64,000 bases of DNA from Candidatus Marinacidobacterium sp. (lineage in GTDB: Bacteria; Acidobacteriota; Vicinamibacteria; Marinacidobacterales; Marinacidobacteraceae). A model generated the notes under the pieces. That model was not told the origin of the DNA. It saw nothing but the letters and a program-made list of their open reading frames with translations, and did no database searches. Positions 10,465 to 62,786 of the stretch are shown here, piece by piece (position 1 is the first letter of the stretch; every line of letters starts with the position of its first letter). The stretch lies in assembly GCA_965262645.1 (NCBI GenBank), contig CBDHFO010000017.1, forward strand, positions 540,024 through 604,023, read 5' to 3'. Made by a program: the position numbers and the translations under genes.

Positions 10465-10772
10465 CCCTCCTGACTCTGAACACCATCCCGGCCTGATTCC
10501 CGTCGGCCGGCCCGTCAGCCGGGATCTCCGGTGCGGAGAGGCGAAAACCTTTCCGTGCCGGTCGCGCCCGGCTTCAAGGTGCGACGCAACATCGGCCCGT
10601 CGGATCGCTCACCTGAGGCTTGGCAGGCTTCTGCCACCGGAGCGGCGGCAACCGCCTGGCGCGGTGCTTTCGCTCTCCCGAGCCGGGTTGCGGCCGGAGA
10701 CGGCGCCAGCCGCGCCGGGTTGGACGCGCCGCGTTGGGCGAACCGGGTTGGGCGAACGGGGTTCGGGCCGGG

Positions 10773-11177
10773 TCAGCGCCGGCGGCGGCGGCGGCGCTGC
10801 ACGACCTGCACCTGGTCCGGTTCGGTGACGCCGATGAAAAGCTGATCGTTCTCCTGCATGACCTCGCCGGTGATTTGCAGGTTCCGTCCCTCGTAGCGCT
10901 TCACCGGATCCAGTTCCTTCCACAGGTGCACATGGGTTTCGGGGATGAGGGCCAGGAAACCGGACGGGAAGGTGATCCGAACGCCGGTGCCGCGGATCAG
11001 CCGCACATCGAGGGCTCGACCCCCGACGGTGATCTCCTCGCCGACGTGATCGGGGCCCACCTCTCCGACCCCCACAACCTCCACCTCTTCCTCGGCCGGG
11101 GGATCCTGCGCGAACGCCGCGGGGGTGATCAGGACCGCAAACGCGGACGCAGCCGCGAGTTTGAAGCGGAATCTCAT
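10773..11177 (-). CDS. Secreted OB-fold-like (BOF/YgiW-like) small protein with C-terminal hepta-arginine tail
   Basis: 134 aa. Signal peptide MRFRFKLAAASAFAVLITPAAFAQDPP, then ...ITGEV...FIGVTEPDQVQVVQRRRRRRR. Paralog of 11460..11888. Confidence 0.55.
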   Translation of the reverse strand: MRFRFKLAAASAFAVLITPAAFAQDPPAEEEVEVVGVGEVGPDHVGEEITVGGRALDVRLIRGTGVRITFPSGFLALIPETHVHLWKELDPVKRYEGRNLQITGEVMQENDQLFIGVTEPDQVQVVQRRRRRRR

Positions 11178-11459
11178 GGCAGCCTCCTCGGTCGGCCCCT
11201 TCGTGGCGGCGGCCGGGAGAACCGCGCGAGCCAGCCGGGACCAGCGCCGTACCTCTTTTAGCGAGAAGCGGGCTCCCAAGTCAATAGGCGACTTGGAAAG
11301 GGGCCTCCTCGGCCCCCCGAGCAACCCATTTCCGGCCCGCCCGCGCCGGCACGGTGGAACCGTGCGGATGCGCTCAGTGCGGAGTCCCGGACCGCTGGCA
11401 GCGCTCAAACCGGGGACGGCGCCGGCCGCGCCGGTCGCCGGAACCAGGTTCGGATCGGG

Positions 11460-11888
11460 TCAGCGCCTCCGGCGGCGGCGTTGCCGGGGAATGATCTCGA
11501 TCTGACTGCGCTCAGTCACCTTGATGAACGGCAACTCGCTCTGCTCCTCGACCTCGCCGGTGATCTTGAGAATGCGCCCCCTGGCGTAGACCTTTACGGG
11601 GTCGGTTCCCTCCCAGTCGCCGAGATTCGCCCGCGGGATGTACACCCGGAAGGGGTACTCGATGTGGGTCCTGTCGAAGTGGATGGTGACGCCCTGAACG
11701 GGGTTGGCCTCGGTTCTCGCGATGCGTCCCCGGACGACCAGCGACTCGCCAACCTGCTCGAGCGTGATCTCATGCGGCGCCACGAACACCTCTTCCTCGG
11801 CAGGAGGATCTTGCGCGAACGCCGCAGGCGCGATCAGGAAAGCGAACCCGAACGCCACAGCGGCCGGGACGGTCAAGCGTGGTCTCAT
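11460..11888 (-). CDS. Secreted OB-fold-like small protein with C-terminal hexa-arginine tail (paralog)
   Basis: 142 aa. MRPRLTVPAAVAFGFAFLIAPAAFAQDPPAEEEV...KITGEVEEQSELPFIKVTERSQIEIIPRQRRRRRR. Same architecture and signal peptide as the neighbour. Confidence 0.55.
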   Translation of the reverse strand: MRPRLTVPAAVAFGFAFLIAPAAFAQDPPAEEEVFVAPHEITLEQVGESLVVRGRIARTEANPVQGVTIHFDRTHIEYPFRVYIPRANLGDWEGTDPVKVYARGRILKITGEVEEQSELPFIKVTERSQIEIIPRQRRRRRR

Positions 11889-12103
11889 AACAGCCTCCTC
11901 TGGCAACCCTTTCGTGGCGTGACGGACGAGACACCGTTTGAGCCAAACCGGGGCCGACGCTGTGTGTTTGTAACAAGATTTCGGCCCCTTAGTCAAAGGG
12001 CGGCCCGGAACCGGGCGTTCCGATCGCCCGGGGACCCCCCCGGAGATCCGGTTGCCGTGGCCCCAACCGGTTCCTGCGACCCTCCCGGAGAGCCGTCAGA
12101 GTG

Positions 12104-12820
12104 TCAGTGCAGCGTCTCGGAGCGGCGGCGCTGATCCCCGTCGTAGCGACCGAACCGAGCCCGCCGCCGCCGCCGCTTGAGATCGTTCCACAGGAGGCCC
12201 AGGCGGGACTGTCGCCGCGGAATCAGGCCGTCGCGCCGCAGCAGGACATACCCCACGACGAGTCCCCCGAGGTGAGCGATGTGGGAGACCCCATCGGATG
12301 TCGCCGAAAGGGAGCCCGCCAACGAAATAAAGCCGAACAGGATCACCATGTGGCGGGCGCTCATCGGCAGGATTCCGAGCAGATAGACCTGAGCCGACGG
12401 GAACAGGAGCCCGAAAGCCAGCAGCAGGCCGTACACCGCTCCCGAAGCGCCGATATGCAGCGCATCGAAGAACGCCGGCAGCGGCAGCAAGGCGAAGAGT
12501 CCCGCCCCGACCCCGCAGACCAGGTAGTAGCGGATGAAGCGGCGCCGGCCCCAGACCTGCTCGAGCTGCGACCCGAACATGTACAGCACGAACATGTTCA
12601 TCAGCAGGTGGAACAAACCCCCGTGCAGGAACATGTAGGTGAAGAGACGCCAGACCTCGAGCGAGAGGACCGCGGGCGGATAGAGGCCCAAAAACACGGT
12701 GACGGCCGGAAACACCAACTGCACCAGATAGACCCCGCCCGTAATCAGGATGAGTTGCTTCACGCCCGGCGGCATGGTGCCGGCCCCGAAGAGGGCACCG
12801 GTTCGGGAGCTGCGGTACAC
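12104..12820 (-). CDS. Rhomboid-family intramembrane serine protease
   Basis: GASGAVYG catalytic Ser motif, downstream HLGG His, 6-7 TM segments. Alternative start at the M16 MPPGVK. Confidence 0.8.
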   Translation of the reverse strand: MYRSSRTGALFGAGTMPPGVKQLILITGGVYLVQLVFPAVTVFLGLYPPAVLSLEVWRLFTYMFLHGGLFHLLMNMFVLYMFGSQLEQVWGRRRFIRYYLVCGVGAGLFALLPLPAFFDALHIGASGAVYGLLLAFGLLFPSAQVYLLGILPMSARHMVILFGFISLAGSLSATSDGVSHIAHLGGLVVGYVLLRRDGLIPRRQSRLGLLWNDLKRRRRRARFGRYDGDQRRRSETLH

Positions 12821-12825
12821 GCTCG

Positions 12826-15675
12826 CTAGGAAGCGCGCCGGGCCGCGGGCGCCGGCCTCAGAATCTCACGCAGATAACGCCCGGTCCAGGATTCGGTGTT
12901 CCGGGCCACCGCCTCCGGGGTCCCGCAGACGACGACCTCGCCGCCGCGACCCCCGCCGTCGGGGCCGAGATCCACGAGGTAGTCGGCCGTCTTGATCACG
13001 TCCAGGTTGTGTTCGATCACGACCACCGTGTTCCCGGCGTCCACCAGCCGGTCCAGGACCCGGAGCAGACGGGCGATGTCGTCGAAATGGAGCCCGGTGG
13101 TGGGCTCGTCGAGGATGTAGAGGGTGTCGCCGGTGGACCGCTTCGCAAGTTCGCGCGAGAGCTTGACCCGCTGCGCCTCCCCTCCCGAAAGGGTCGGGGA
13201 CGGTTGTCCCAGCCGGATGTAGCCGAGTCCCACATCCTGGAGCGTCTCGAGAATGTGCAGGATGCCGGGCTGGGACCGGAACACGGTGACGGCTTCGCTG
13301 ACCGTGAGGTCGAGCACCTCGGCGATGGACCGGCCCTGGTATCGAACCGTGAGCGTCTGGTCGTTGAAACGCCGTCCGCCGCACACCTGGCAGGACACGA
13401 AGACATCGGCCAGAAAATGCATTTCCACCCGGATCACCCCGTCTCCGTGGCAGTGCTCGCAACGCCCGCCCGGCACGTTGAAGGAGAAGCGCCCCGGGCG
13501 ATACCCCTGGGCGCGTGCCGCCGGCAGAGCGGCGAAGAGCGAGCGGATGCCGTCGAAAACCTTCGTGTAGGTGGCCGGGTTGGAACGCGGGGTGCGGCCG
13601 ATGGGGGACTGGTCGATGTCCACCACCCTTCCGACGCGTTCCATCCCCTCGATGCGGGAGTGCGGACCTACCGGACGCTCCGAGCGGTGGAGCGCGCGGG
13701 CGAGCGCCCGGTAGAGAACCTCGTACACGAGGGTGCTCTTGCCCGCGCCGGAGACTCCGGTCACGCAGGTGAAGGCTCCGAGCGGAATCCGGACATCCAC
13801 TTCCTTCAGGTTGTTCGCGCGAGCCCCGACGATCCGGACGGAATGCGGCGAAGCGCGCCGGCGGGGCGGGACGGGGATCTCGAGATCTCCCCGGAGATAG
13901 CGTCCGGTGAGGGATTTCGGATCGTTCCGGATCTGCTCCGGAGACCCCTCGGCCACCACTTCCCCGCCGTAAACCCCAGCCCCCGGGCCGAAGTCCAGCA
14001 CGTGGTCCGCGGACTCGATGGTCTCCCGGTCGTGCTCCACGACCACCACGGTGTTCCCGATGTCCCGCAGCCGATGCAGCGCTTTCAGGAGCTTCCCGTT
14101 GTCGCGTGGGTGCAGGCCGATGGACGGCTCGTCGAGGATGTAGATGACCCCCGTGAGCTCCGAGCCGATCTGGCTGGCCAGCCGGATGCGCTGGGACTCG
14201 CCGCCCGAGAGGCTGGGCGCCAGGCGATCGAGCGAGAGGTAGCCGAGCCCCACGTCGGCGAGAAAACGGAGTCGATTCCGGATTTCCTTGAGGAGTTCGG
14301 CGCCGATGACCAGCGCCGTGCCCTCGAGCGCCAGGCTCCCCATCAGGTCGAGAGCATCCTCGATGGCCATCGAGGAGATATCCGCGATGGTCCGGCCGTC
14401 CACCGTGACCGCGAGCGCCTCGGGACGCAAACGCGTGCCGCCACAGGCGCGGCAGGCGCGGCTCGAGAAGAAGCGCGTGTAATAGCGCCGCGCCCGGTCG
14501 GAGGAGGTTTCCCGCATCCGGCGGGTGAGCAGGTTGAGCACTCCCTCCCATTGCACCGGTCGGGAACTTCGCTGGTAATTGACGGGAATCCGCTCGCGGC
14601 CGGCGCCGGACAGCAGGATCTTCCGCTTGGCGGCGGCGAGACGCTCCCACGGGCGGTCGAGATCCACCTCGAACCGCTTCGCCACCCCCCGAATCACCGT
14701 CGCCTCCCAGCCGTCCTTCTCGGCGAACCGGCCCCAAAACGCCACCGCGCCCTCGTTGATGCTCAGGCGCGGATCGGGGACCACGAGGTCCTCGTCCACC
14801 TCGCCGCGGGCGCCGAGGCCGTTGCACTCCTTGCACATGCCCTGGGGGCTGTTGAAGGAGAAGAGCTGTGGAGAAAGCTCGGGGAATCCGATGCCGCAAC
14901 TCGGGCAGCCGTTCTTTTCGGAGAAGACCCGGTCCCGGGACTCCCCTTCGACCGCCGCGATCACGATGCCGTCCCCCTCGCGAAGCGCGGTCTCGACCGA
15001 ATCGGTGACCCGTCCCCGCCATTCCTCGCCGGCCGGCTCCTTGCGGCTCAGCCGGTCCACCACGATCTCCACGTTGTGCTTCTTTCGCTTCTCGAGGGCC
15101 TCGACTTCCTCGATGAGCTGGACCTCCCCGTCGATCCGCGCCCGGGAAAAGCCGCGGCGCAGGATGGTCTCCAGGGTGGAGCGGAACTCGCCCCGGCGGT
15201 TCTCGAGCACCGGCGCGAGGAGCAGGAACCGCGAGCCGGCCGGGAGATTCGCGAGTTCCTCGACGATCTCCTGGGCGGTCTGCGGGCTGACTGCCCGGCC
15301 GCAGCGAGGACAGTGGGCGACCCCGACCCGGGCGAAGAGCACCCGCAGGTAGTCGGAAATCTCCGTGATGGTCCCGACCGTGGAGCGGGGATTGTGGCTG
15401 GCCGACTTCTGATCGACCGAGATTGTCGGAGAGAGCCCCTGGATCGTGTCGTAGAGCGGCTTGTCCATCTGCCCGAGGAACTGCCGGGCGTAGCTGGACA
15501 GCGATTCGACGTAGCGACGCTGACCTTCGGCGTAGAGGGTGTCGAGCGCCAGCGACGACTTTCCCGACCCGGAGACCCCGCTCAGAACGACGAGGCGCTT
15601 CTTCGGAATACGAACGGTAATGTTCTTGAGATTGTGCTGCCTGGCGCCCCGCACCACGATGCGGTCGGGCTCCAT
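12826..15675 (-). CDS. uvrA: Excinuclease ABC subunit A
   Basis: 949 aa with duplicated ABC ATPase, [12 protein letters not shown] Walker A, zinc fingers. Unmistakable UvrA. Confidence 0.95.
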
Positions 15676-19515: not shown

Positions 19516-19711
19516 TTAGCAGCCTGTGGACAAAGTGGCGTGAGCGCCGAGAGTGGCGAGGCGCCCGGCCGACAAGGCGCGATTCGGGCGGCATACCGGG
19601 TGCATTCCGACCGAATCGCAACGCCGAGCGTAGGGGCTCAGCCGGGATGGATCGCCGCTCGAGCCCCCACCGGGAGAACTGGGCCGCGTGACTGTGTTCA
19701 CCGGCTGCTAG
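19516..19711. mobile_element. MITE (TIR family CAGCCTGTGG/CCACAGGCTG, YTAR termini), copy between scpA and scpB
   Basis: ttagCAGCCTGTGGacaaagtggcgtgagcgccgag...caccggctgcTAG. The terminal TAG is the scpA stop codon. Confidence 0.7.
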
Positions 19712-21551: not shown

Positions 21552-21747
21552 AAACAGCCTGTTCACGCGGTGTTCGACCGGCGATGCATCCCGCCTGAAC
21601 CGCGCCGCTTCGCGTCGCTCATCGTTGCGCTTCGGTCGAAATACACTCGGGCCAGTTCTCCCGGTGGGGGCTCCTCCCTCGCGCGCCTTGTCAGTCGGGC
21701 GCCTCACCGGTCTCGGCACTCGCGTCACTTTATCCACAGGCTGTTGA
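21551..21747. mobile_element. MITE (same TIR family), copy abutting the trpS start codon
   Basis: ataaACAGCCTGTTCAC...ttctcccggtgggggctcc...atCCACAGGCTGTTGA. Confidence 0.65.
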
Positions 21748-21758
21748 GCGTCGGCATT

Positions 21759-23591
21759 CTACGGGCCGCTCGGCACGCCGTCCGAACGAAGACGGGCGTG
21801 GAGCCGGGCCGCGAGCGCGGGGCCTACCGTTTCGGCGAGCTCCGCCTCGGAGGCCTCCTTGACCCGCCGGAGGCTGCCGAAGCGGCTCAGGAGCGCCTGA
21901 CGGCGCCGGGGGCCGATGCCGGGCACTCCGTCCAGGGCGGAGCGGAGCGTGGCGGCCCGGCGACTCTTGCGGTGGAAGGTGATCGCGAAACGGTGGGCCT
22001 CGTCGCGGGCTCTTTGGAGGAGCTGGAGCGCCGGGGAGTTCCGCGGAAGCCGGAGGGGTTCCGGAGCGCCGGGCAGAAAGATCTCCTCCTCGCGTTTGGC
22101 GAGGCCCGCGTGGGGAATGTGGGTGAGACCGAGGTCGTGGAGCGCGGAGGCGGCGGAACCGAGCTGGCCGCGCCCTCCGTCCACCAGGATCAAATCGGGA
22201 AGCTCCTGCCCCTCGGTGAGCACCCGCCGGTAGCGGCGGAGCACCACCTCGTGCATCGAGGCGTAGTCGTCGGGCTTTCCGGACACGCTGCGGATGCGGA
22301 ACCGCCGGTAGGCCGAAGGGAGCGGCTCTCCCCGCTCGAAAACCACCATGGACGCCACCACCTGACGTCCGCCCAGATTCGAAATGTCGAACGCTTCGAT
22401 GCGGCGGGGCTCGACGGAGAGTTGGAGCGCTTCCTGCAGGGCGCGGACCCGGGCGGCGGCCTTCCTGCCCGCTTCCCGGAAGTCGAGATCGAAGGCGAGA
22501 CGGGCGTTCCGGCAGACCAGATCCACCATCCGGCGGCGGGAGCCCTTCACGGGAACGTGGATCTCGACCCGGCCGCCGCGCTTTTCCGCGAGCCAGTCCG
22601 CGACCAGCTCGCGTTCGGGAAAATCGAGCGGCGATTCGATCCGCGGCGGAGGACGGCGCCCCAGCTCGTAGAACTGTTTCATCGACGCTTCCACGAGCCC
22701 GGCATCGTCCACCGGGGGCAGATCGGATAGCGAAAACGTATCCCGGTCCACCACTTTGCCGTTGCGGACCAGGAAAACCTGCAACTGGGCGCGATCGCCC
22801 TCCCGGTAGAGGCCGAACACGTCGCGGGTCTGCCCGTCGGCCGCGGCCATCTTCTGGCGGTCGTTCAGCTCGGCGAGGAGGCGCAGGCTGTCACGCAGGC
22901 GGCCGGCCTCTTCGAAGCGCTCCGCTTCGGCCTCCTCGCGCATCCGGCGGGTGAGCGAGGTGGAGAGTTCGGTCGTCCGTCCGAGCAGGAAGAGCCGGGC
23001 CGCTTCCGATGCCTCGCGGTACTTTTCGACCGAGCAGATGGAATCCACGCAAGGCGCGATGCAGCGGCGGATCTGGTGCTGAAGACAGGGGCGCGGACGC
23101 TTGCCGTTGAGTTGCTCGCGGCAGTTCCGGATGCCGAAGAGCCGGTGCACCAGACTCATGCTCCCGCGCGCGAGGCTCGCCGGGAAATACGGACCCGCGT
23201 AGGCGGCCCCGTCGGTGCCGGCGCCGCGCACGATGTGGACCCGCGGGTACTTCTCGTTCATGGTGAGCCGGACGAGCGGCGGGTTCTTGTCGTCCCGCAG
23301 CAGGATGTTGTAGCGGGGCCGGCGCGTCTTGATCAGGTTGTTCTCGAGCAGCAGGGCCTCGCGCGCGGAGTCGGTGAGCACCACCTCCACATCGGCAATC
23401 TGGGAGAGCAGGTTCCCCTTCCGGACGTCGGGTGGCGGAGTGCGGAGGTGCGACAGCACCCTGGCCCGCACCGAAGCGGCCTTGCCGACGTAGAGCGTCT
23501 TCCCCTCGGCGGAGCGAAAGAGATAGACCCCGGCGCTCTCCGGGAGGATGGCGATCTTGTTCTCAAGACCGGCAGGAAAACCGGCCGTCAT
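21759..23591 (-). CDS. uvrC: Excinuclease ABC subunit C
   Basis: 610 aa. GIY-YIG N-terminus (GVYLFRSAEGKTLYVGKA), UvrBC interaction region, C-terminal HhH. Confidence 0.95.
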   Translation of the reverse strand: MTAGFPAGLENKIAILPESAGVYLFRSAEGKTLYVGKAASVRARVLSHLRTPPPDVRKGNLLSQIADVEVVLTDSAREALLLENNLIKTRRPRYNILLRDDKNPPLVRLTMNEKYPRVHIVRGAGTDGAAYAGPYFPASLARGSMSLVHRLFGIRNCREQLNGKRPRPCLQHQIRRCIAPCVDSICSVEKYREASEAARLFLLGRTTELSTSLTRRMREEAEAERFEEAGRLRDSLRLLAELNDRQKMAAADGQTRDVFGLYREGDRAQLQVFLVRNGKVVDRDTFSLSDLPPVDDAGLVEASMKQFYELGRRPPPRIESPLDFPERELVADWLAEKRGGRVEIHVPVKGSRRRMVDLVCRNARLAFDLDFREAGRKAAARVRALQEALQLSVEPRRIEAFDISNLGGRQVVASMVVFERGEPLPSAYRRFRIRSVSGKPDDYASMHEVVLRRYRRVLTEGQELPDLILVDGGRGQLGSAASALHDLGLTHIPHAGLAKREEEIFLPGAPEPLRLPRNSPALQLLQRARDEAHRFAITFHRKSRRAATLRSALDGVPGIGPRRRQALLSRFGSLRRVKEASEAELAETVGPALAARLHARLRSDGVPSGP

Positions 23592-39659: not shown

Positions 39660-40367
39660 GTGCCCTCGCCATCAGCAGGACCCCCGGTAGCCATCGTCAC
39701 CGGCGCCAGTCAGGGAATCGGCGCCGCAACCGCCCTGAAGCTCGCCGAGCGTGGTTTCGCCGTCGCGCTGGCGGCGCGCCGCCCGATGGGTCTGGTCTCG
39801 ATCGAGAATCGGATCCGGGAAGCGGGCGGGTTCGCCTTTGTTGCCCCGACCGACATCACGGAACCGGGTCAGGTACGCGAGTTGGTCGCGGAAACCGAGA
39901 GGCGTTTTGGTCCCGTGGGATTGCTGGTGAACGCCGCGGGCGCGGCCTTTCGCGCTCCCCTTACCGCCACCTCCGAGGCGGATTTCGACCGGGTCCTGGG
40001 AGTGAATCTGAAGGGCGTGTTCCTCGCTACCAAGGCCGTTCTGCCAGCGATGATCGAACGGAGAAGCGGCCGCATCGTGAACCTGGCGGCGGTGGCGGCT
40101 CGGATCGGCGCTCCCCGGTTGACCGTCTATGGCGCCTCGAAGTGGGGTGTCGTGGGGTTCACCAAGGCATGCGCGGAGGAACTGCGGCCCGCCGGAATCT
40201 CGGTGTTCGCGGTTTGCCCCGGCTCCGTGGATACCGAGTCCTACCGAACGGTGATCCCCGGCGCGAAGCCGAGGTCCAGCCCCGAAGCGGTAGCGGATGT
40301 CATTGTCTGGCTCGGCAGCGAAGCTCCCGCAGCCATGTCCGGCAGCGTGGTGGATGCGCCCGGGTAG
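39660..40367 (+). CDS. SDR-family oxidoreductase
   Basis: 235 aa. TGASQGIGAA glycine motif, YGASK catalytic YxxxK. GTG start. Its TAG stop is the first triplet of the downstream MITE. Confidence 0.8.
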   Translation: MPSPSAGPPVAIVTGASQGIGAATALKLAERGFAVALAARRPMGLVSIENRIREAGGFAFVAPTDITEPGQVRELVAETERRFGPVGLLVNAAGAAFRAPLTATSEADFDRVLGVNLKGVFLATKAVLPAMIERRSGRIVNLAAVAARIGAPRLTVYGASKWGVVGFTKACAEELRPAGISVFAVCPGSVDTESYRTVIPGAKPRSSPEAVADVIVWLGSEAPAAMSGSVVDAPG

Positions 40368-40524
40368 CAGCCTGTGGTGAAACCCAGGCGGCCCAGTTCT
40401 CCCGGTGGGGGCTCCTCCCTCACGCGCCTTGTCAGCCGGGCCCCCACCGGGAGAACTGGCCCCACCGGGAGAACTGGGCCTCGCCGCTCTCGGCGCCCAC
40501 CCGGGTTCCACCACAGGCTGCTAA
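40365..40524. mobile_element. MITE (TIR CAGCCTGTGG...CCACAGGCTG), short copy
   Basis: TAGCAGCCTGTGGtgaaaccc...ccaccgggagaactgg x2...gggttCCACCACAGGCTGCTAA. Confidence 0.7.
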
Positions 40525-49700: not shown

Positions 49701-49878
49701 TAACAGTCTGAGGATCAAGTGGCGTGAGCGCCGAGACCGGTGAGGCGCCCGGCTGGCAAGGCGCGATTTGAGAGAAACACCGGGCGTATTTCGACCGAAT
49801 CGGAACGCAGAGCGTAGCGATTCAGCCGGGATGCATCGCCGGTCGAACGCCGCGTGACTTTATGCAAAGGCTGTTCAG
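49700..49878. mobile_element. MITE (TIR family, degenerate: TTAACAGTCTGAGG...CAAAGGCTGTTCAG)
   Basis: Internal sequence caagtggcgtgagcgccgagaccggtgaggcgcccgg is nearly identical to the 19516 and 63740 copies. Confidence 0.65.
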
Positions 49879-55600: not shown

Positions 55601-55787
55601 TTAACAGCCTGTGGCAAAACCCACGCGGCGTTCGGCCGGCGATCCATCCCGCCCGAACCACTCCGCTTCGCTCCGTTCTTCGTTGCGTTTCGGTCGAAAT
55701 ACACCCGGTATTCCTCCCTCACGCGCCTCGTCGGACGGGCGCCTCACCGACCTCGGCGCTCACGTGAGTTTCACCACAGGCTGTTAA
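55601..55787. mobile_element. MITE with perfect 14-bp TIR and TTAA ends (TTAACAGCCTGTGG...CCACAGGCTGTTAA)
   Basis: Seen directly. The right-end TTAA supplies the TAA stop of the aldehyde dehydrogenase gene. Confidence 0.75.
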
Positions 55788-57145
55788 CGAATCCAGACCG
55801 TCTTCTTGTTCGTGAACTCGATGAGCCCGTCCGGGCCCAGTTCACGGCCGAAACCGCTGTCCTTCGTCCCACCGAAGGGGACGCGGGGATCCGATTTGGT
55901 GATGCCGTTCACGAAGACGGCCCCGGATTCGATTTCCGGCACGAGCCGTTCCGCCCGCTTCGGGTCGGATGTCCAGAGCGAAGACCCCAGCCCATAGTTC
56001 GTCCGGTTGGCGATCTCCACCGCCTCCGCCTCGTCGCCAAAGGGGACCACCGTAGCGACCGGCCCGAAGAGTTCCTCGTCGGCGGCCGGGGCTCCCGCGG
56101 GTGGCCCCGCCAGAATCCCGGTGGCGGAAAAGAACCCGCGTTCCGGCGCGGTCCCCCGGTAGAGGAGTTCCGTGCCGGCGCGAACCGAGTGCGCGACCTG
56201 CTCCTCGAGACGGTCGCGGAGATCTTGCCGGGCCAAGGGTCCCACTGCGGTCTCCGGCGCCAGCGGGTCCCCCACCGTCGTTTCGCGAAACCGCGTCTCA
56301 AAGACCGAAAGGAACGCATCGAGCACCGTTCGCTGCACGAGAAAGCGTTTGGCGGCGATGCAGCTCTGCCCGGAATTGATGAGCCGCGCCCCGGCGCCCG
56401 CTGAAGCCGCCTCCTCCACATCGCAGTCCTCGAACACGATGAAGGGATCGCTCCCGCCGAGCTCGGCGACCATCGGCTTGAGACTGCGCCCCGCGACCGC
56501 GGCGACCTCGCTGCCGGCGCGCGAACTCCCGGTGAGCGTCACTCCCCGAATCCGCCGGTCGGCGATGCAGGTGGCCGCCTGCTCGTTTGTCAGGAACAGA
56601 TTCTGGAGAAGCCCCTCCGGCGCGCCCGCCTCGCGATACAACTCGACGATCCGGAGCGCGCACTGGGGCACCGAGGGCGCGTGCTTGAGCACCATCGGGT
56701 TCCCGGTGAGGAAGTTGGGCGCCGATACCCGGATGACCTGCCAGAGCGGGAAGTTCCAGGGCATGACCGCAAGGATCGGCCCGCTGGGATCGAAGCGCAC
56801 GAAGGCGTCGCTCCCGTCGGATTCGTAGTGCCGAGGGCGGAGCGACTCCTCCGCGGTCTCGGCGTAGTGCCGCGCCACCCAGGCGCACTTTTGGGCCTCG
56901 GCGACTCCCTGGGCGAGCGGCTTTCCCATCTCGAGAGCCATGAGCTCCGCCAGTTCATCCGCCTGCGCACACAACAGATCCGCCAGGCGCTCGTTCACGG
57001 CGCGCCGCTCGGCAAAGGGAGACCGGCGCCAGGAGCGGAACGCGGCATCGGCGCGGGAGAGGGCTGCTTCGACCTCGCGGCCGGTAGCCGTCGGAAACTC
57101 GGCCACCAGTTCCTCGGTGGCGGGGTTCAGGGAGCGGTAGAGCAT
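55784..57145 (-). CDS. NAD(P)+-dependent aldehyde dehydrogenase (succinate-semialdehyde dehydrogenase-like)
   Basis: 453 aa from the internal ATG MLYRSLNPATEEL. ELGGSDP (Glu), SGQSCIAAKRF (Cys) catalytic motifs. The 80-codon N-terminal extension is spurious. Confidence 0.9.
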   Translation of the reverse strand: MLYRSLNPATEELVAEFPTATGREVEAALSRADAAFRSWRRSPFAERRAVNERLADLLCAQADELAELMALEMGKPLAQGVAEAQKCAWVARHYAETAEESLRPRHYESDGSDAFVRFDPSGPILAVMPWNFPLWQVIRVSAPNFLTGNPMVLKHAPSVPQCALRIVELYREAGAPEGLLQNLFLTNEQAATCIADRRIRGVTLTGSSRAGSEVAAVAGRSLKPMVAELGGSDPFIVFEDCDVEEAASAGAGARLINSGQSCIAAKRFLVQRTVLDAFLSVFETRFRETTVGDPLAPETAVGPLARQDLRDRLEEQVAHSVRAGTELLYRGTAPERGFFSATGILAGPPAGAPAADEELFGPVATVVPFGDEAEAVEIANRTNYGLGSSLWTSDPKRAERLVPEIESGAVFVNGITKSDPRVPFGGTKDSGFGRELGPDGLIEFTNKKTVWIR

Positions 57146-62568: not shown

Positions 62569-62786
62569 GTTAAGCGCCTGTGGTGAAGCCCGCGTGAGCG
62601 CCGAGAGCGGGGAGGCCCAATTCTCCCGGTGGGAGGCGGTTCAGGCGGGATGGATCGCCGCTCGTTTCCGGAGCGGGGCGCAAGCACCGCGTAGACCCCG
62701 GAGCGGAAAGGACGGGGGGCGGGTTCACCCGACCCCCATCCCTTCTGGCTCGGGAACGCCGCGTGGGTTTTGCCACAGGCTGTTAA
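62569..62786. mobile_element. MITE (GTTAAGCGCCTGTGG...CCACAGGCTGTTAA) between the pilM-like and pilN-like genes
   Basis: TIR seen directly. The right-end TTAA gives the TAA stop of the upstream pilM-like ORF. Internal TCTCCCGGTGGG motif. Confidence 0.7.

Follow-up and report, generated by a model that had tools for sequence, protein, structure and literature searches.

The Locus and Its Two Genes

A stretch of 64,000 nucleotides (nt) from Candidatus Marinacidobacterium sp. (Acidobacteriota, Vicinamibacteria; assembly GCA_965262645.1, contig CBDHFO010000017.1, positions 540,024 to 604,023 of the forward strand), referred to below as the window, contains two adjacent genes for small exported-type proteins with an oligonucleotide/oligosaccharide-binding (OB) fold, which end in six and seven consecutive arginines. 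The feature is real and unusual, and what we infer is its function. An earlier reading made from the sequence alone (the sequence-only reading) had described the pair as tandem paralogues of 134 and 142 amino acids (aa) encoded on the minus strand. The open reading frames (ORFs) are as described there, and the products, named A and B here, are 44% identical (BLASTP, E 3e-25). In window coordinates, the genes and the putative promoters before them are as follows.

11460..11888, minus strand: gene B, 142-aa exported-type OB-fold protein (ATG at 11888, TGA at 11462-11460)
10773..11177, minus strand: gene A, 134-aa exported-type OB-fold protein (ATG at 11177, TGA at 10775-10773)
11967..11996, minus strand: promoter-like element of B with putative function (TTGACT, spacer of 17-18 nt, TTACAA/TACAAA), ~75 nt 5′ of the ATG and aligning with the element of A
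11255..11284, minus strand: promoter-like element of A with putative function (TTGACT, spacer of 17-18 nt, CTAAAA/TAAAAG), aligning with the element of B

Both genes carry a GAGGAGG ribosome-binding site 5 nt before the ATG, and the N-termini of their products have the string PAAFAQDPPAEEEV in common. The long similar leaders mentioned in the sequence-only reading were found again by pairwise comparison, as the ~180 nt upstream of A and of B align with each other and share a TTGACT box, an A-rich hexamer 17-18 nt 3′ of the box and the pattern CCACGAA.GGG....GAGGAGGCTG..ATG. The first ~100 nt 3′ of the two stop codons align as well. Since flanks on both sides align, the duplicated unit must have taken them in, i.e., it was a whole expression unit. 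The TTGACT element 5′ of A is conserved in L001, L005, L006, L010 and L017. A strict sigma-70 scan gave no match around the two genes, the promoter-like element of B failing it, and no match was obtained there in a terminator scan; Rfam at E ≤ 1 returned only a chance microRNA match around them.

Compared with the window, the ratio of nonsynonymous to synonymous substitution rates (dN/dS) is 0.13-0.22 for B and 0.34-0.84 for A. Both are real genes under purifying selection, and A is the derived, faster-evolving paralogue.

B and A lie in one frame, separated by a single TGA (then C) and a stop-free spacer of 282 nt (11178-11462, minus strand); both genes stop at TGA followed by C. As the same-frame relation is not kept in L006, L017 and L018, it is probably due to chance in G+C-rich DNA, and a read-through fusion of B and A was rejected on this ground.

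Signal-Peptide-Like N-Termini

The similar Sec signal peptides claimed for the two proteins were recovered by inspection: each N-terminus has a basic n-region, a hydrophobic core of ~17 residues and A-x-A before a conserved Q-D, which is the pattern of a Sec substrate of signal peptidase I.

11814..11888, minus strand: signal-peptide-like segment of B, aa 1-25 (MRPRLTVPAAVAFGFAFLIAPAAFA), with predicted cleavage between AFA and QD, from sequence features and the conserved A-x-A before Q-D
11109..11177, minus strand: signal-peptide-like segment of A, aa 1-23 (MRFRFKLAAASAFAVLITPAAFA), from the sequence

The N-terminus of B can be parsed into MRPR, LTVPAAVAFGFAFLIAP and AAFA before QD, and that of A into MRFRFK, LAAASAFAVLITP and AAFA before QD. 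Across the family, the Q-D after the predicted cleavage site does not vary, and the Ala at −1 hardly does. In the AlphaFold models, the predicted local distance difference test (pLDDT) score falls below 50 for residues 4-29 of B and for most of residues 1-31 of A. Judging from these features, both proteins would be exported by Sec and cleaved after AFA. The Tat motif S/T-R-R-x-F-L-K is absent from the n-regions (MRPRL and MRFRFK, without adjacent RR), and inspection of the sequences found no lipobox and no cysteine in A or B.

The OB-Fold Core and Its Kin

The sequence-only reading had further proposed an OB-fold domain of ~90 aa, and the structural models bear it out.

11487..11753, minus strand: OB-fold core of B, aa 46-134, net charge about −1 (DSSP, Foldseek, charge count)
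10797..11048, minus strand: OB-fold core of A, aa 44-127, net charge about −4 (AlphaFold model, Foldseek, charge count)

The AlphaFold2 model of B (m7182306913f3) has a mean pLDDT of 74.6 with a core of about 90, and that of A (m01253537b126) a mean of 80.5 with a core of 90-95. In both models, DSSP gives the order expected of an OB-fold: strands 1-3, helices (two short ones in B) and strands 4-5. Foldseek searches of the PDB at E ≤ 1e-3 provided 66 matches for B and 19 for A, and all those among the best 50 are OB-folds. At the top of the lists are the N-terminal anticodon-binding domains of AspRS, AsnRS and LysRS, and engineered OBodies, Stn1/Ten1 and Cdc13 come next; by this measure, the nearest PDB matches of both models are nucleic-acid-binding OB domains.

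A resemblance to the periplasmic BOF/YgiW proteins, which had been part of the same proposal, had to be given up. PF04076 (BOF) does not match A or B at E ≤ 10 or 10 of their relatives at E ≤ 0.1, a YgiW/BOF structure is absent from the best 50 Foldseek matches of either model, and the nearest kin turned out to be of PF01336 type. Pfam and NCBIfam scans of A and B themselves gave nothing significant, PF01336 does not match either protein even at E ≤ 10, the 29 close homologues contain no precomputed Pfam domain, and a profile search of PDB sequences yielded no match at E ≤ 10.

The kinship was obtained by way of an intermediate profile. In a search of 1.8 billion representative proteins, the profile of the mature domain retrieved 95 proteins at E ≤ 1e-3, with E down to 1e-22 for PF01336-type repeats. 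The matches form two groups: single-domain exported proteins of 120-140 aa, and many proteins in which a signal peptide or lipobox is followed by a tandem array of two to six copies of the domain. Copies of the second group exceed the Pfam cut-off for PF01336 and often those for tRNA_anti_2 and tRNA_anti-like too; the matches of profile A2 in P0042, P0043, P0050, P0069, P0085 and others cover stretches scoring 43-97 bits against PF01336. Partner domains in this group are PLDc_2 (P0042, P0056, P0069), an EEP nuclease/phosphatase (P0051) and a Ser/Thr protein kinase (P0034). DUF4131 was also matched among the relatives, above the Pfam cut-off in P0065 (E 3.6e-8) and weakly in P0033 and P0040. 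On the evidence of the intermediate profile, A and B are a divergent, Vicinamibacteria-specific offshoot of extracytoplasmic PF01336-like OB modules.

Arginine Tails at the C-Terminus

The endings in QRRRRRR(R) were read correctly: Gln is followed by six arginines in B (IIPRQRRRRRR) and by seven in A (VVQRRRRRRR), so that each protein has at least six consecutive arginines at a terminus.

11463..11486, minus strand: basic tail RQRRRRRR of B (codons CGG CAA CGC CGC CGC CGG AGG CGC; TGA at 11460-11462)
10776..10796, minus strand: oligo-arginine tail RRRRRRR of A (CGC five times, CGG, CGC; TGA at 10773-10775)

The tract GCCGGCGGCGGCGGCGGCG is the plus-strand complement of CGC CGC CGC CGC CGC CGG CGC of A; the codons of B (CGC CGC CGC CGG AGG CGC) are less repetitive. 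Six-frame translation of the window, which has 68% G+C, contains 25 runs of at least five arginines, and an arginine run by itself therefore means little.

The weight lies in conservation, which was checked among the homologues. In both paralogues and in the intact full-length homologues, down to ~30-45% identity, the run stands in frame directly before the stop (one subclade with an extension, described below, aside). Its length is R4-R8 in every intact full-length member of the clade (about 80 protein clusters), two homologues carry one extra Ser after it, and the only homologues lacking the tail are the truncated or frameshifted entries P0024 and P0036. The tail is both conserved and unusual. 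Among the genomic loci compared, of which there were at least 20, the arginine codons vary among CGC, CGG, CGT, CGA, AGG and AGA with the arginine kept. Six genomes whose DNA is 93-97% identical to that of the window all have a run of 6 in B and of 7 in A, with differing codons; clade-wide, runs of 4 to 8 occur, and all the length changes are in frame. Such synonymous turnover argues for selection on the protein and not on a DNA repeat, and to judge from the codons the arginine tail is selected as a peptide. Recoding or slippage at a (CGG/CGC)n run, suggested in the sequence-only reading, finds no support here, as the length is constant in the six near-identical genomes, the codons vary and the run of B is broken by CGG and AGG.

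In P0024 (113 aa) and P0036 (189 aa), the tail was lost only through mid-gene frameshifts; assembly indels or pseudogenes are the likely cause. When gene A is translated in the +1 frame, its product matches the aberrant C-terminus of P0036 (compare the ORF at 10609-10923, minus strand).

The role of a sorting tag, also raised at the outset, was not upheld. Neither the motifs of LPXTG, PEP-CTERM and GlyGly-CTERM/rhombosortase signals nor a hydrophobic segment was found before the arginine run, and the residues preceding it form a polar β-strand of the OB barrel (SQIEIIPRQ in B, DQVQVVQ in A). The absence of a hydrophobic segment excludes signals of these types despite the neighbouring rhomboid gene (see below). 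A type IV secretion signal consists of dispersed C-terminal arginines on a cytoplasmic substrate without a Sec signal; in A and B, the arginines are contiguous and the N-terminus is signal-peptide-like. Searches of the literature for poly-arginine tails on secreted proteins of bacteria turned up no relevant work.

In one subclade (B orthologues of L009-L019, e.g., L018 4887-5384), the stop after the arginine run of B has been lost and 25-27 Ala-rich residues follow (PRGPDPAEAIRAAAAVS..AGR). This extension is homologous to the 3′ untranslated region of B in the window, its indels are multiples of three where inspected (L012 versus L018), and its dN/dS is 0.44 versus 0.10 in the core. The lack of a counterpart in the outgroups and the faster dN/dS indicate a tolerated stop-loss. 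That the extension represents the ancestral state was rejected, as a stop codon follows the run at once in the outgroups and in all A copies, and dN/dS of the extension is ~4x that of the core.

Charge Layout

To count charges, each protein was cut into three parts, with the conserved HVGE motif and the end of the last strand as boundaries. By this count, the basic tails of A and B are accompanied by acidic segments at the start of the mature proteins.

11754..11813, minus strand: acidic N-terminal mature segment of B, aa 26-45 (QDPPAEEEVFVAPHEITLEQ), net charge about −6 (charge count)
11049..11108, minus strand: acidic N-terminal segment of A, aa 24-43 (QDPPAEEEVEVVGVGEVGPD), net charge −7 (charge count)

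Within the segment of B, P-A-E-E-E is nearly invariant, and within that of A, a short strand is modelled at residues 34-36. The same layout extends to the clade and differs from that of distant relatives, as the net charges of the three parts show.

Window clade and nearest outgroups (P0030, P0032, P0037): N-segment −5 to −9, core −5 to +1, tail +5 to +8
Distant single-domain relatives (P0039, P0045, P0048, P0055, P0060, P0062, P0071, P0078): N-segment −1 to −3, core +5 to +9, tail +1 to +5

Mature proteins of the window clade are near neutral overall, and without the tail, the isoelectric point (pI) is 5.1 for B and 4.5 for A. Nearer single-domain relatives bear shorter basic C-terminal patches (PRKRKRPT, PRGRRRSRD, PPKRKVT), and further out in the family, a basic tail is missing from most members. 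From this series, positive charge appears to have moved from the barrel to the terminal tail while a matching acidic segment arose. On the simplest reading, the older form of the family would then have been basic and hence polyanion-binding.

Distribution, Gene Order and Duplication

Homologous clusters number 29 by word-indexed search and 77 by profile search; all are labelled “hypothetical” or nameless and lack Pfam domains. About 20 genomes contain orthologues, those of B being 60-94% identical, and in a genome scan the family was found only in metagenome-assembled genomes (MAGs) of Acidobacteriota (Vicinamibacteria, “Candidatus Marinacidobacterium”). Many of the MAGs are apparently from sponges, to judge by their names and not by metadata. 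The samples behind the names SB0661 and SB0668 also yielded sponge-type Poribacteria (PMC7883664).

In most genomes, the order is uvrA, rhomboid, B and A, followed by DoxX and DUF5916 genes on the opposite strand. A B-type gene stands alone, with A absent, in L007, L020, L021, L022 and L035. Since the B-type gene is single copy in the outgroup genomes, B is the ancestral type, and A came from tandem duplication inside the clade. Two basic-core members, P0045 and P0186, occur in one JGI metagenome sample (3300050232), on the large contigs Ga0506513_0000064 (L029) and Ga0506513_0000039 (L031). One of the Ga0506513 members adjoins TonB/ExbBD, TPR and RelA genes and the other a Na+/H+ exchanger and an EAL protein, which suggests that P0045 and P0186 are independent paralogues in non-sponge relatives.

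12104..12820, minus strand: gene of a rhomboid-family intramembrane protease (PF01694, E 1.5e-31), directly upstream of B

The order of rhomboid and then OB gene recurs in L001-L004, in L035 and in the distant L026. Other relatives do not have this order, and the neighbours there are LexA, patatin, TPR/RelA, EAL or PD-(D/E)XK genes. The rhomboid gene was considered as an operon partner and rejected, as the neighbours vary among distant relatives and the OB proteins have no hydrophobic C-terminal segment for a rhomboid or rhombosortase. The OB genes stand alone, and the rhomboid gene is counted here as a neighbour. It carries an RRRRR run of its own in its C-terminal tail (12161-12175, minus strand). 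In L026, a HEAT-like gene and not uvrA lies upstream of the rhomboid-OB pair. The gene of the single-copy relative P0037 (L025 117-1334) lies directly upstream of lexA, and the pair in the window lies two genes downstream of uvrA (12826-15675). This proximity of uvrA and lexA gives at best a very faint hint of a connection with the DNA-damage response, and a link to DNA repair based on it was rejected as too sparse; no systematic search for LexA boxes was made.

A dispersed repeat of ~130-190 bp with an internal inverted repeat occurs in at least six places of the window.

~19539-19690, 21564-21771, 40359-40520, 49722-49875, 55603-55794 and 62576-62660, window: dispersed repeat

In the close relatives L001-L003, uvrA and the rhomboid gene are separated by an insertion of 0.9 kb that consists of a tandem cluster of the repeat (L001 4235-5138) and that gene callers label as a “protein” of 279 or 296 aa; the L001 translation is rich in Pro, Arg, Gly and Ser. 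The window is without this insertion, the uvrA ORF ending at 12826 and the rhomboid ORF beginning at 12820.

Proposed Function and Alternatives

The genes, their paralogy, fold and remote homology, the conserved tail and the layout of charges are shown by the data above; for the function of the pair, we infer export and cleavage, binding of a polyanion, a masking effect of the acidic segment and the kind of ligand. After Sec export and cleavage following AFA, each product would be a small protein with a single OB domain between two oppositely charged tails. The most likely role of the arginine run, in line with the binding to anionic polymers suggested in the sequence-only reading, is that of a non-specific electrostatic anchor, which would hold a neutral-to-acidic protein on a polyanion of the envelope or of the extracellular space; candidates are extracellular DNA or RNA, lipopolysaccharide or anionic lipids, acidic exopolysaccharide, polyphosphate and a sulfated host matrix. 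The acidic N-segment (QDPPAEEE...), whose opposite charge is about equal, might mask or balance the tail until a stronger polyanion is met, and may besides leave the beginning of the mature protein suited to export. Among the candidates, a phosphodiester polymer such as extracellular DNA would be favoured, because relatives of the domain are fused to secreted phosphodiesterases. We put forward this combination of an arginine anchor on a polyanion and a balancing or masking acidic segment tentatively, with a confidence that stays somewhat short of an even chance.

Several points weigh against it. The link to PF01336 is only transitive, A and B themselves matching no Pfam model. The OB cores are so acidic (pI 4.5-5.1 once the tail is left off) that the barrel itself is unlikely to bind nucleic acids in the classical way. 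Sec substrates generally avoid positive charge in the early mature region, to which the acidic stretch may in part be due, and the cleavage of the signal peptide was judged by eye. Finally, the extension behind the arginine run of B in one subclade indicates that a free C-terminal position is not strictly required.

The near-equal and opposite charges of the two tails, in paralogues and outgroups alike (−7/+7, −6/+7, −9/+5, −5/+5), could also be accounted for if the oligo-Glu and oligo-Arg tails bind each other and not an external polyanion. Such a charge zipper would give either a closed, auto-inhibited molecule or head-to-tail A-A, B-B and A-B chains, or a coacervate-like envelope or biofilm matrix. 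It would explain why both tails are nearly invariant and why two co-located paralogues have identical tails, and it agrees with the intermediate pLDDT of the tails (about 60-80) and the short strand modelled in the acidic segment of A. Nevertheless, a fine-scale correlation between the numbers of Glu and Arg is missing within the clade, and acidic early mature regions are common in exported proteins; we regard a charge zipper or self-assembly of this kind as unlikely, if worth keeping in mind.

The layout of a signal peptide and one OB domain of ~110 aa, together with the acidic core, is also what one would expect from a BOF-like periplasmic binder of cations, i.e., metal ions or cationic antimicrobial peptides, in which the arginine tail would act as a built-in competitor or lid. 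BOF proteins (PF04076; YgiW, YdeI, SipA) are periplasmic and are thought to bind positively charged ligands, cationic peptides having been reported (PMC6370654). Their likeness to A and B is one of layout only (signal peptide plus a single OB domain of ~100-130 aa), as there is no sequence match and they are not the nearest structural neighbours. An oligo-arginine tail is not known from BOF proteins. As PF04076 is unmatched, no BOF structure is among the top Foldseek matches and the cores of distant relatives are basic, a cation binder seems rather improbable.

A polycation directed at a host or a competitor was considered as well, in which the R6-R8 tail binds sulfated glycans of a sponge or enters host or neighbouring cells. 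It is indeed a clade of marine MAGs, several with names of sponge-metagenome samples (SB0661, SB0668), that has the longest tails and the duplicated gene, and six or more arginines fit the length range of synthetic cell-penetrating peptides. However, basic tails are also present in relatives without a known sponge habitat, no route across the outer membrane and no eukaryote-like domain were identified, and the sponge origin of most of the MAGs is read from names, not from metadata. We hold this possibility to be improbable. A variant, a natural counterpart of the synthetic R8 tag in which oligo-Glu would be a mask released at the target as in an “activatable” cell-penetrating peptide and the duplication diversified the cargo domain for interaction with a sponge host, has an equally slight chance.

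A phenomenon of DNA or translation, be it a slippage-prone (CGC)n contingency repeat, a recoding or read-through site, or an artefact of annotation or assembly, might be read from the five consecutive CGC codons of A, the length of 4-8 among species, the TGA-C stops, the common frame of B and A and the one extended subclade, and is highly improbable in view of the fixed length in six near-identical genomes, six different arginine codons across orthologues, length changes that are all in frame, outgroups and A copies that stop right after the run with TGA, TAG or TAA, loss of the shared frame in L006, L017 and L018, a dN/dS of 0.44 in the extension against 0.10 in the core, and the absence of the tail only from frameshifted or truncated homologues (P0024, P0036).

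Likeness to Known Systems

Returning to the reading of the arginine run as an anchor balanced by an acidic segment, it is useful to compare A and B with systems of known fold or chemistry. The PF01336 extracytoplasmic OB repeats of secreted PLD- and EEP-type phosphodiesterases and of sensor kinases resemble A and B in fold, in profile homology and, as predicted for A and B, in extracytoplasmic location. Unlike these multi-domain relatives, A and B are single-domain proteins with a neutral-to-acidic core, an acidic N-segment and an oligo-arginine tail. Another OB-fold, DUF4131 (PF13567) of the DNA-uptake protein ComEC, is predicted to bind DNA (PMC5031224). This domain sits within a large membrane protein that has transmembrane helices; it has no charged tails and has no direct match to A or B.

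Synthetic oligo-arginines used as tags or as cell-penetrating peptides (R6-R9) have an affinity for heparan sulfate, nucleic acids and anionic lipids. The chemistry of the tails of A and B is the same, whereas the tags are engineered and the runs of A and B are natural, placed on a Sec-type substrate and accompanied by an acidic counter-segment. In charge-neutralised precursors of cationic peptides, e.g., those of defensins with their anionic propieces, an anionic segment balances a polycationic segment of similar size in one chain. A and B differ from precursors of this type in that they show no sign of proteolytic release and the cationic part is a homopolymer tail and not a folded peptide.

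Significance

The analysis defines an unannotated family that connects the OB repeats found in secreted phosphodiesterases with stand-alone OB proteins in Vicinamibacteria. The family is phylogenetically narrow, no long-standing question hangs on it yet, and the practical impact will be modest until the ligand is identified. The pair is small and easily expressed, and would be suited to testing how charged tails set the place of a protein in the envelope or matrix of uncultured marine symbionts. If the proposed reading is true, a folded exported domain between oligo-Glu and oligo-Arg segments of matched charge would be a simple natural design, and these bacteria would send proteins with 6-8 consecutive arginines at their end through Sec and use such tails as electrostatic anchors, for which the precedents so far are mainly engineered tags and cell-penetrating peptides.

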